Assembly (NCBI GenBank): GCA_030603365.1
Contig: JAUVXV010000002.1
Span: forward strand, 320,001-384,000
Source of the DNA: Candidatus Heimdallarchaeota archaeon
GTDB taxonomy: Archaea; Asgardarchaeota; Heimdallarchaeia; Heimdallarchaeales; Heimdallarchaeaceae
Direction of reading: 5' to 3'
Length of the DNA: 64,000 nucleotides
Part shown: in pieces, positions 33,825 to 35,333 of the stretch
How the letters are laid out: each line of letters begins with the position of its first letter
Numbering within the stretch: the stretch's first letter is position 1
The notes under the pieces: generated by a model
The model's database searches: none
What the model was told of the DNA's origin: nothing
The model's input: only the letters and a program-made list of their open reading frames with translations
Made by a program: the position numbers and the translations under genes

Positions 33825-35333
33825 CTAATAGACTCTTTTACCATCTACAAAAACAAAAATCTGTTCTGATATTATGTGAGCTTTTAGCACATCTCCCACT
33901 TTCATTTTTGCATACTCTTCTGTTTGTTCTACAACATCAACAAGTAACATTGTTTCATCCTTAAGTAGTCCTGTCAATTTAACTTCATTACCTAGATATT
34001 CGATAGTATTAATTTCTATTTCAATTGGATTGTCTGTTACTTGAGTTAAGCTAACAACTTCAGGTCTTATAACCAAGTCTACATCTGAACCAATTTTAAG
34101 GGATTCTTTGGTAGTTACTTTTATTTGTTCTCCACCTGCTAATTCAACGATATCAGACTTTATTGCCTTACCAGAAAGAGTACTAGAACTCCCGATGAAT
34201 TGACCAACAAACAATGTTTTTGGGTCAGTAAAAACTTCTGTTGGTGTTCCGTATTGTTCAATATCTCCTATATTCATAACAGCAATTCTATCACTAATAG
34301 CTAAAGCTTCAGCTTGATCGTGAGTAACATAAATTGCAGTCATACCAATAGTTTTGATAATTGACCGAATCTCTGTTCTTAGTTCTTTTCTTAGCTTAGC
34401 ATCTAGATTACTTAAAGGTTCATCACAGAGCAGTACGTCAGGTTCTACAACAATACTTCTTGCTAAGGCAATACGCTGTTGTTGACCTCCAGACAACTCT
34501 GTTGGATTTTTATCGATCTGATCTTCAAGATGAACTAATGCTAAAACTTCTTGCACTTTTTCTTTTCTGAATCGGAAGTCATAATCTACTTCTGCTTTAG
34601 CATCTAGATAGTTTTTCTTTCTGTTAACCCAGTAGTAGGGTTTGGTTAACCAGAAGAAATATAGATATAAAGGTTTAATCAAGATACTTCTTTCAAATTT
34701 GGTCTTCCTTGAAGGTAACCACTTAGGTCTCTCCGTTTTCACAAGCTCGTAAAAACTTCGGATGTCTTTCTTCATCAATCCAAATACATATTTAATGATT
34801 CTGAAGGGAATTTTCTCCTCACTCTCAAAGATTTCCTTGAGAATTTCAGAACTGGAATTCCAAACTTCTTCTGTAGTTTTGCCTAGAGCATAATCAACTA
34901 ATTTTTGTGCAATTTCCTCTATCTCTTTAGTAGCAGCATATGGTGTAAAATTAAGTTTTGTAATTACTCCAGAATCGTCTACGTTAATATAGAATACTAC
35001 TTTTTCTTTCAATCGCAATTTAAGACCATATTCCACATTCTTGAAAATAGTCATATGAGGCCATAATGCATAATTTTGGAATATCATTGCAGTATTTCTT
35101 TTCTGTGGAGGTAAAATAGTTACTTCTTTATCCCCAATATAGACTTGACCTTCGTAAGGTTCAACAAATCCTGCTATTGCTCTTAGTAATGTAGTTTTAC
35201 CACAACCACTTGGTCCAAGAAGTGTAGTGATTTCACCATCATTGATATCTAAACTGAGATTTTCTACAACTATAAAATCATCATAAGCAATACTAACCTG
35301 TTTATATTTTATAGAGACCATAATTCTCAACAC
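33825..35333 (-). CDS. ABC transporter ATPase (PotA/FbpC/MalK type) with inserted IscU-like domain
   Basis: GPSGCGKT, FQNYALWPH, LSGGQQQR, DEPLSNLD, VTHDQ, C-terminal TOBE-like region; ~150-aa insert. Confidence 0.92.
   Translation of the reverse strand: MLRIMVSIKYKQVSIAYDDFIVVENLSLDINDGEITTLLGPSGCGKTTLLRAIAGFVEPYEGQVYIGDKEVTILPPQKRNTAMIFQNYALWPHMTIFKNVEYGLKLRLKEKVVFYINVDDSGVITKLNFTPYAATKEIEEIAQKLVDYALGKTTEEVWNSSSEILKEIFESEEKIPFRIIKYVFGLMKKDIRSFYELVKTERPKWLPSRKTKFERSILIKPLYLYFFWLTKPYYWVNRKKNYLDAKAEVDYDFRFRKEKVQEVLALVHLEDQIDKNPTELSGGQQQRIALARSIVVEPDVLLCDEPLSNLDAKLRKELRTEIRSIIKTIGMTAIYVTHDQAEALAISDRIAVMNIGDIEQYGTPTEVFTDPKTLFVGQFIGSSSTLSGKAIKSDIVELAGGEQIKVTTKESLKIGSDVDLVIRPEVVSLTQVTDNPIEIEINTIEYLGNEVKLTGLLKDETMLLVDVVEQTEEYAKMKVGDVLKAHIISEQIFVFVDGKRVY

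Follow-up and report, generated by a model that had tools for sequence, protein, structure and literature searches.

An IscU-derived domain lodged in the helical subdomain of a Heimdallarchaeaceae importer ATPase

Introduction

Why should the ATPase of an importer carry, in the midst of its helical subdomain, a copy of the Fe-S scaffold IscU that contains no cysteine? The question is raised by a gene in a window of 64,000 nucleotides (the whole stretch of DNA analysed here, positions 320,001 to 384,000 of contig JAUVXV010000002.1, assembly GCA_030603365.1) from a Candidatus Heimdallarchaeota archaeon of the family Heimdallarchaeaceae, and its features are collected in Table 1 together with those of the genes discussed beside it. 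A sequence-only reading had proposed that the copy may recruit IscS or SufS-like partners to an importer and so couple the uptake of iron or sulfur to Fe-S assembly. The evidence gathered here favours, at a probability of roughly 55%, another explanation, namely that the ATPase of a working importer carries a folded and dispensable IscU-derived appendage or spacer, with an aromatic segment lying at the membrane or the permease.

Table 1. Features of the ATPase gene, of the Fe-S genes and of the candidate transport partners (window positions unless a contig is named)
Feature	Location	Strand	Remarks
ABC importer ATPase gene, MalK/PotA/FbpC/PhnT2 type	33825..35333	minus	502 aa from GTG
NBD N-terminal part	35013..35321	minus	Walker A, Q-loop, helical subdomain up to EYGLKLR
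Walker A GPSGCGKT	35216-35193	minus	
Q-loop Gln86	35078-35076	minus	
IscU-derived domain, residues ~111-217	34683..35003	minus	equals IscU 44-150, including the archaeal PxWxP..T..E tail
Aromatic segment, residues 221-237	34623..34673	minus	kept throughout the family's orthologs, whether or not the IscU domain is present
Helical linker, residues 238-255	34569..34622	minus	leads back to the normal helical subdomain
NBD C-terminal part	34179..34568	minus	LSGGQ, Walker B LLCDE, D-loop, H-loop His338, all invariant
Signature LSGGQ	34496-34482	minus	
TOBE_2 domain, residues 420-495	33849..34076	minus	
IscU/MisU-type scaffold, 170 aa	22658..23170	minus	C40, D42, C67, H110, C111 intact
IscS/NifS-type cysteine desulfurase	23185..24396	minus	immediately upstream of iscU, with which it forms a minimal ISC pair
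Three SufS-like class V aminotransferases	window 54181-55386 and 60972-62165; contig C1:28415-29572		
Fused permease, 963 aa	contig C1 588027-590918		on the minus strand; two BPD_transp_1 repeats, LVIVD insert
Binding protein, 502 aa	contig C1 591061-592569		

The ATPase and the two layers of its insert

A domain search recognized ABC_tran and TOBE_2 in the open reading frame (PF08402, 27.4 bits against a cut-off of 21), and the Walker A, Q-loop, LSGGQ, Walker B, D-loop and H-loop were all found, with little or no variation over 31 aligned rows. The NCBIfam scores stayed below their cut-offs (PhnT2 342/458, PotA 310/482, FbpC 289/496; the best score was that of TIGR03265), the match being split by the insert. 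The Q-loop and the helix preceding the insert are invariant and the same as in operon-encoded orthologs, and a full-length model is that of a MalK-like protein apart from the insert, whose IscU domain is folded as in the model made in isolation. To judge from these motifs, the protein is an ATPase that would work like those of MalK/FbpC-type importers. Its database product begins at Met5, and this ATG at 35321, giving 498 aa, is probably the true start.

The distance from NYALWPH to LSGGQ is 193 residues here and 51 in insert-less orthologs (54 if counted from IFQ), so that 142 residues are extra, close to the ~150 estimated from the sequence alone; they fall between Q-loop and signature at residues 108-255 (34569-35012, minus strand), a stretch with neither Cys nor His. 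Two layers can be told apart in them. The aromatic segment and the helix that follows it occur in each of the 24 Heimdallarchaeaceae orthologs that were read completely; 12 genomes of the family have this ATPase in a matching gene neighbourhood, with 45-85 extra residues and no IscU part. Because the aromatic segment is family-wide, the IscU part proper amounts to the ~105 residues (111-217) in front of it.

The aromatic helix behind the IscU part, already noticed in the sequence-only reading, has a best 17-mer interfacial score of -5.5 to -9.6 kcal/mol in family orthologs, as against -1.9 to -3.9 kcal/mol in insert-less ones; its net charge is positive and its hydrophobic moment low in most orthologs. 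We infer that the segment either enters the membrane surface or packs against the permease. As to other identities, a transmembrane helix was ruled out (best 19-residue hydropathy at most 1.5), and so, by eye, was an intein, the terminal Cys/Ser and His-Asn being absent.

Descent of the insert from IscU

The insert is colinear with the IscU of the window (28% identity over 108 aa, BLASTP E 8e-12), as had been proposed, and the match ends at about residue 217 and not at 207. When the whole proteome was searched with the insert, IscU was the best other match by far (E 2e-8; next 0.004), and the inserts of other orthologs reach 40-43% identity to IscU. With a profile of 16 inserts, into which no IscU was admitted, the 13 best PDB sequences were all IscU/NifU; the same profile recovered the IscUs of the family with E values of 1e-13 to 7e-24 and scored them much better than most other Asgard IscUs. 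Against Pfam NifU_N (PF01592), 6 of the 16 inserts matched at E up to 1 (best 7.5e-6), the insert of Ca. H. aukensis attaining 24.3 bits against a curated cut-off of 22, and this genome's own insert gave no match. An AlphaFold (AF2) model of the insert, built from an alignment without IscU rows, had a pLDDT of 82; the top 35 Foldseek rows were all IscU/NifU (best E 5e-3), VIA-align superposed the model on 4eb5_C with Z 9.9 and rmsd 3.0 over 106 residues, and in the Atlas it showed TM 0.74 to an archaeal NifU_N cluster. In the models a two-strand hairpin is seen, with strand 1 missing.

Since the insert carries the PxWxP..T..E tail of the archaeal IscU subtype, the lineage's own iscU is indicated as the donor, and by its sequence the insert clearly descends from the family's own subtype. 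The native IscU, the only NifU_N gene found in the genome, is of this same subtype, and its gene lies 10.7 kb from the ATPase gene, on the same strand here (10-14 kb in several relatives). As no SufBD gene was found in this genome, which is 89% complete, iscS-iscU is seemingly its only Fe-S system. In a genome of another Asgard family, an intact IscU is fused to a thioredoxin-reductase-like FAD domain (G094, L155:3010-4356; 448 aa) near iscS and tusA, and frames of about this length (~450 aa) match in five genomes of that family.

Loss of the cluster ligands and of the IscS face

The insert begins at IscU residue 43-44, with helix 1, strand 1 and Cys40 absent. In 11 of 11 aligned inserts Cys67 has become Ala or Ser, the Asp42 position is not conserved and His110-Cys111 is replaced, within a stretch of variable length; around the former cluster site, lengths differ by up to 16 residues. 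The earlier statement that the insert is Cys-less and its ligands are gone thus stands, with the correction that the first Cys and the Asp went by truncation, not substitution. The columns kept (I44, I57, F62, Y65-G66, A74, W90, G117, L119, R124, P135, W137, T143 and E146) belong mostly to core and tail, and A74, W90, R124, P135, W137 and E146 are invariant in IscU and insert alike. The IscU columns G41, E63, C67-N70 and K108-C111, invariant or nearly so in family IscU, are scrambled in the insert. No insert-specific conserved surface was apparent, the conserved columns being nearly all common to IscU and core-like. Both Heimdallarchaeum inserts (L011, L012) have gained two Cys, spaced by eight residues and away from the ligand positions (IscU 81 and 89).

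In E. coli, IscU touches IscS through Tyr3, Tyr11, Gly38, Val40, Lys42, Lys59-Gly64 and Lys103, and either the deletion of residues 1-12 or K103E abolishes binding (PMC2854127); the YG at 65-66, kept in strand 3 of the insert, falls within the stretch in contact with IscS there. A prediction of the complex between insert and IscS, both given as alignments, scored 0.00 against a mark of 0.32 and carries no weight either way. Lacking both ligands and N-terminus, the insert is not a scaffold; with helix 1, strand 1 and every ligand lost, it would build no cluster and most likely does not dock on IscS, so that the recruitment of IscS by the insert appears unlikely.

Pooled over four genome pairs, the IscU part had a dN/dS of 0.20, the aromatic part 0.15, TOBE 0.25 and the catalytic core 0.02-0.03 (0.03 in its N-terminal and 0.02 in its C-terminal part), single pairs giving 0.16-0.98 from small counts, with one pair saturated; the IscU part is thus about as constrained as TOBE and much less so than the core; identity was 41% between inserts, 70% between IscUs and 81% over IscS columns. 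From this pattern the insert would be selected to stay folded and not to keep an IscU-like active face. A dN/dS of 0.2 is compatible with fold maintenance and with a loose binding role alike, and cannot separate the two.

Distribution and history

Of 25 scoreable Heimdallarchaeaceae genomes, 13 carry the IscU insert, always at one and the same junction, and 12 lack it. Among the carriers are two closed genomes, those of Ca. Heimdallarchaeum aukensis (UJG40877.1) and endolithica (UJG43651.1), and in at least two genera the insert has kept both its reading frame and its fold. The fusion is lineage-specific, as had been supposed: a search of 301 Asgard genomes met with fused copies in Heimdallarchaeaceae only. 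The weak matches of two genomes (G023, G056) proved to be M28-like peptidases, hit by chance. Among 5.8 billion proteins no other host of the domain was found, the 15 longer proteins all being these ABC ATPases (weak evidence), and the 11 matches among 1.84 billion representatives comprised one ortholog, IscU-like proteins, one insert fragment and two repeat proteins, of which the one inspected was judged spurious. In one ortholog (G020, L157:1-1241) an in-frame TAA stands just before the PxWxP tail of the insert, through sequencing error or as a pseudogene.

On the tree the family ATPases form one clade beside the insert-less ATPases of sister families, and presence or absence of the insert requires three changes. 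When ATPase core and permease were concatenated, which presumes a shared history of the two genes, a single clade of carriers was rejected (AU p 0.002), as was a single clade of non-carriers (AU p 0.0002); with the ATPase core alone neither grouping was rejected (p 0.30 and 0.40). The identical junctions favour a single gain and subsequent losses, or else spread through recombination; most simply, the insert would have been gained once and lost later. The insert-less junction DEQAVLE resembles the IscU tail DEKHALE, a hint of a deletion scar that is too short to count.

The probable cognate permease and the ligand of its binding protein

No permease or binding-protein gene adjoins the ATPase gene, as had been stated; both exist elsewhere, on contig C1, and form the only type I set of this class in the genome without an adjacent ATPase. 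The permease ortholog of the sister families belongs, in eight genomes, to an intact operon of binding protein, permease and insert-less ATPase, and the best match of these operon ATPases in the present genome is the ATPase described here (281-366 bits, against at most 233 for its paralogs). The tree of the ATPase agrees with that of the permease. Throughout the family genomes examined, the ATPase gene lies apart from any permease gene. From these correspondences we infer that the ATPase powers the C1 permease. The C-terminal half of this permease stays 62-91% identical, while the insert is absent from 12 of 25 scored orthologs. Two other loci were noted: on contig C2 (57078-59309), two Opp/Dpp-type ATPases with 155 and 133 residues from Walker A to signature, against ~90-107; and on contig C11 (116706-119489), an Opp-type permease pair without an adjoining ATPase gene, of a class other than that of the TOBE-type ATPase described here.

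In all family genomes aligned, LVIVD repeats lengthen the permease by ~330 residues behind its first membrane helix and probably form an extracellular propeller; they are absent from sister-family permeases, and the two Heimdallarchaeum genomes add a further domain of ~115 residues. Within the window (37023-39992), a secreted, C-terminally anchored protein of 989 aa contains many repeats like those of the permease.

The only solved relatives of the binding protein are P5PA (6wce, E 1.5e-9) and 8x1a, the latter labelled an iron(III) binding protein yet endowed with the AfuA-type His-Asp motif; no FbpA was among the solved matches. The invariant T210-T211-S212 and S246 align with the phosphate residues S147-G148-T149 and S183 of P5PA. 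An invariant Asp-Phe-Tyr-Gly (265-268) puts Asp-Phe-Tyr where AfuA has His-Asp, in either register, and the sugar-binding His205/Asp206 of AfuA are not kept. Opposite Asp-Phe-Tyr we would place the Tyr-Tyr iron-ligand pair of FbpA, which the binding protein appears to lack, in a register that may be off. The JGI automatic annotation of Fe3+ transport is a family-level label, and such labels proved wrong for AfuA and P5PA (PMC4546632, PMC8427247). In the latter study, P5PAB was assayed also with a separately encoded AfuC. By sequence, the binding protein resembles the phospho-ligand binders P5PA and AfuA more than the iron-binding FbpA, and it probably takes a phosphorylated small molecule as its ligand, not ferric iron.

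Discussion

How, then, may an importer have come by such an ATPase? In the ancestor of Heimdallarchaeaceae the gene would have left its operon and ended about 11 kb from iscSU; a surface loop of the helical subdomain would have gained the aromatic segment, tying it, presumably, to membrane or permease; and the 3' two-thirds of the nearby iscU would then have been copied in frame into the same loop, an order and a mechanism that we suppose. The copy would have kept hydrophobic core and tail while losing helix 1, strand 1 and all ligands, to act as a folded spacer or appendage between ATPase core and aromatic segment, which would have to stay folded to spare the motor and could be deleted. Homology and the single junction seen support the copying of iscU. 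That the insert is dispensable is the best reading of what is observed, the carriers not being one clade and 12 of the 25 scored orthologs doing without it. Against a mere appendage speak its long in-frame retention, the invariant positions that it has in common with IscU, and YG 65-66.

A competing explanation, which we hold tentatively and at about half the weight, is that a pseudo-scaffold regulates transport from the mobile helical subdomain through a partner other than IscS. The tail could serve to bind the native IscU; other candidates are a client of IscU and, by way of an exposed strand edge, the second ATPase subunit or some cytoplasmic portion of the permease. Accessory domains on importer ATPases are often regulatory (TOBE, CBS, C2), the insert was long retained under purifying selection, its PxWxP..T..E tail is invariant or nearly so in insert and IscU, and the modelled two-strand hairpin lacks strand 1. 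This regulation would sit badly with the want of an insert-specific conserved surface, with the length variation at the former cluster site, and with a permease half that stays conserved where nearly half of the orthologs have no insert. It is doubtful that the pseudo-scaffold still binds an Fe-S component (IscU, a client, or IscS via a new surface), letting Fe-S or sulfur status regulate the importer; were this so, the insert would be an accessory domain of a new kind for ABC ATPases, arisen through local duplication in Asgard archaea. More doubtful again is the original proposal, in which IscS or a SufS-like enzyme is recruited and iron or sulfur uptake coupled to Fe-S assembly. The retained fold and strand 3 YG, the proximity of ATPase and iscSU genes (11 kb, linked in several genomes), the JGI label and the sole iscS-iscU system would suit it. 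Against it speak, on the side of IscS, the missing residues 1-43 and face positions that are invariant in family IscU and vary in the insert, itself 41% conserved beside an IscS at 81%; and on the side of iron, a binding protein with Asp-Phe-Tyr apparently in place of Tyr-Tyr and with invariant Thr/Ser at the P5PA phosphate site, under a family label that has misled before.

Two further explanations have still less to commend them. It is improbable that the ATPase has been uncoupled from transport and works as a stand-alone membrane-bound enzyme, its insert blocking the permease cleft: the large size of the insert and the separation of the gene from any permease throughout the family would fit, and are countered by the invariant Q-loop and pre-insert helix, by the congruent trees, and by a C1 permease that has no other candidate ATPase. 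An assembly chimera or a chance resemblance is scarcely credible. One could invoke it for this genome alone, where identity is 28% and Pfam silent, or for the Foldseek E of no better than 5e-3; identities elsewhere reach 43%, the profile and structural matches go uniformly to IscU/NifU, and since the same junction recurs in 13 genomes, two of them closed, misassembly is ruled out. Conservation across genomes likewise makes a read-coverage check unnecessary.

Were the insert regulatory, it would form a new link from Fe-S assembly to import, and were it not, it would be an instructive passenger. In either case the locus offers a traceable instance of domain shuffling in Asgard archaea, with donor, recipient, junctions, insert-less relatives and probable losses to hand. 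It indicates that a transport ATPase can accommodate 140-190 additional residues in its helical subdomain, and that an IscU fold endures even when its first helix, first strand and ligands are gone. Of the two layers, the more consequential may be the family-wide aromatic segment, which would tether a normally soluble subunit to the membrane. The literature searched, most subscription papers excepted, contained neither a fusion of IscU with an ABC ATPase, as the sequence-only reading had surmised, nor a relevant precedent, and the fusion is apparently undescribed.

Comparison with known systems

With MalK, PotA, FbpC/AfuC and PhnT2 the Heimdall ATPase has in common all catalytic motifs and TOBE_2, and the same plan, in which a permease of two BPD_transp_1 repeats and a binding protein are its partners; it differs by the 142-residue insert in the helical subdomain and by a gene unlinked from the permease, which itself differs by its probably extracellular LVIVD-repeat insert. 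The invariant Thr/Ser phosphate positions are common to AfuABC and P5PAB of Actinobacillus, importers of sugar-phosphate and pyridoxal-phosphate that were first called iron importers, though the similarity of the binding protein to AfuA and P5PA is remote and extends over ~180 residues only. With the A. fulgidus IscU (PDB 4eb5/4eb7), the closest solved, the insert shares strands 2-3, helices 2-5 and the archaeal C-terminal tail, its LPxVK motif being degenerate; unlike the IscU/NifU N-terminal domain (PF01592) at large, it is embedded in another protein and evolves much faster. The UvrA insertion domain, the eEF3 chromodomain and the ABC-F arm are likewise domains inserted in an ABC helical subdomain, in the same permissive region from Q-loop to signature; they belong to soluble, non-transport ATPases, and their folds are unrelated to the IscU domain that this transport ATPase has received.
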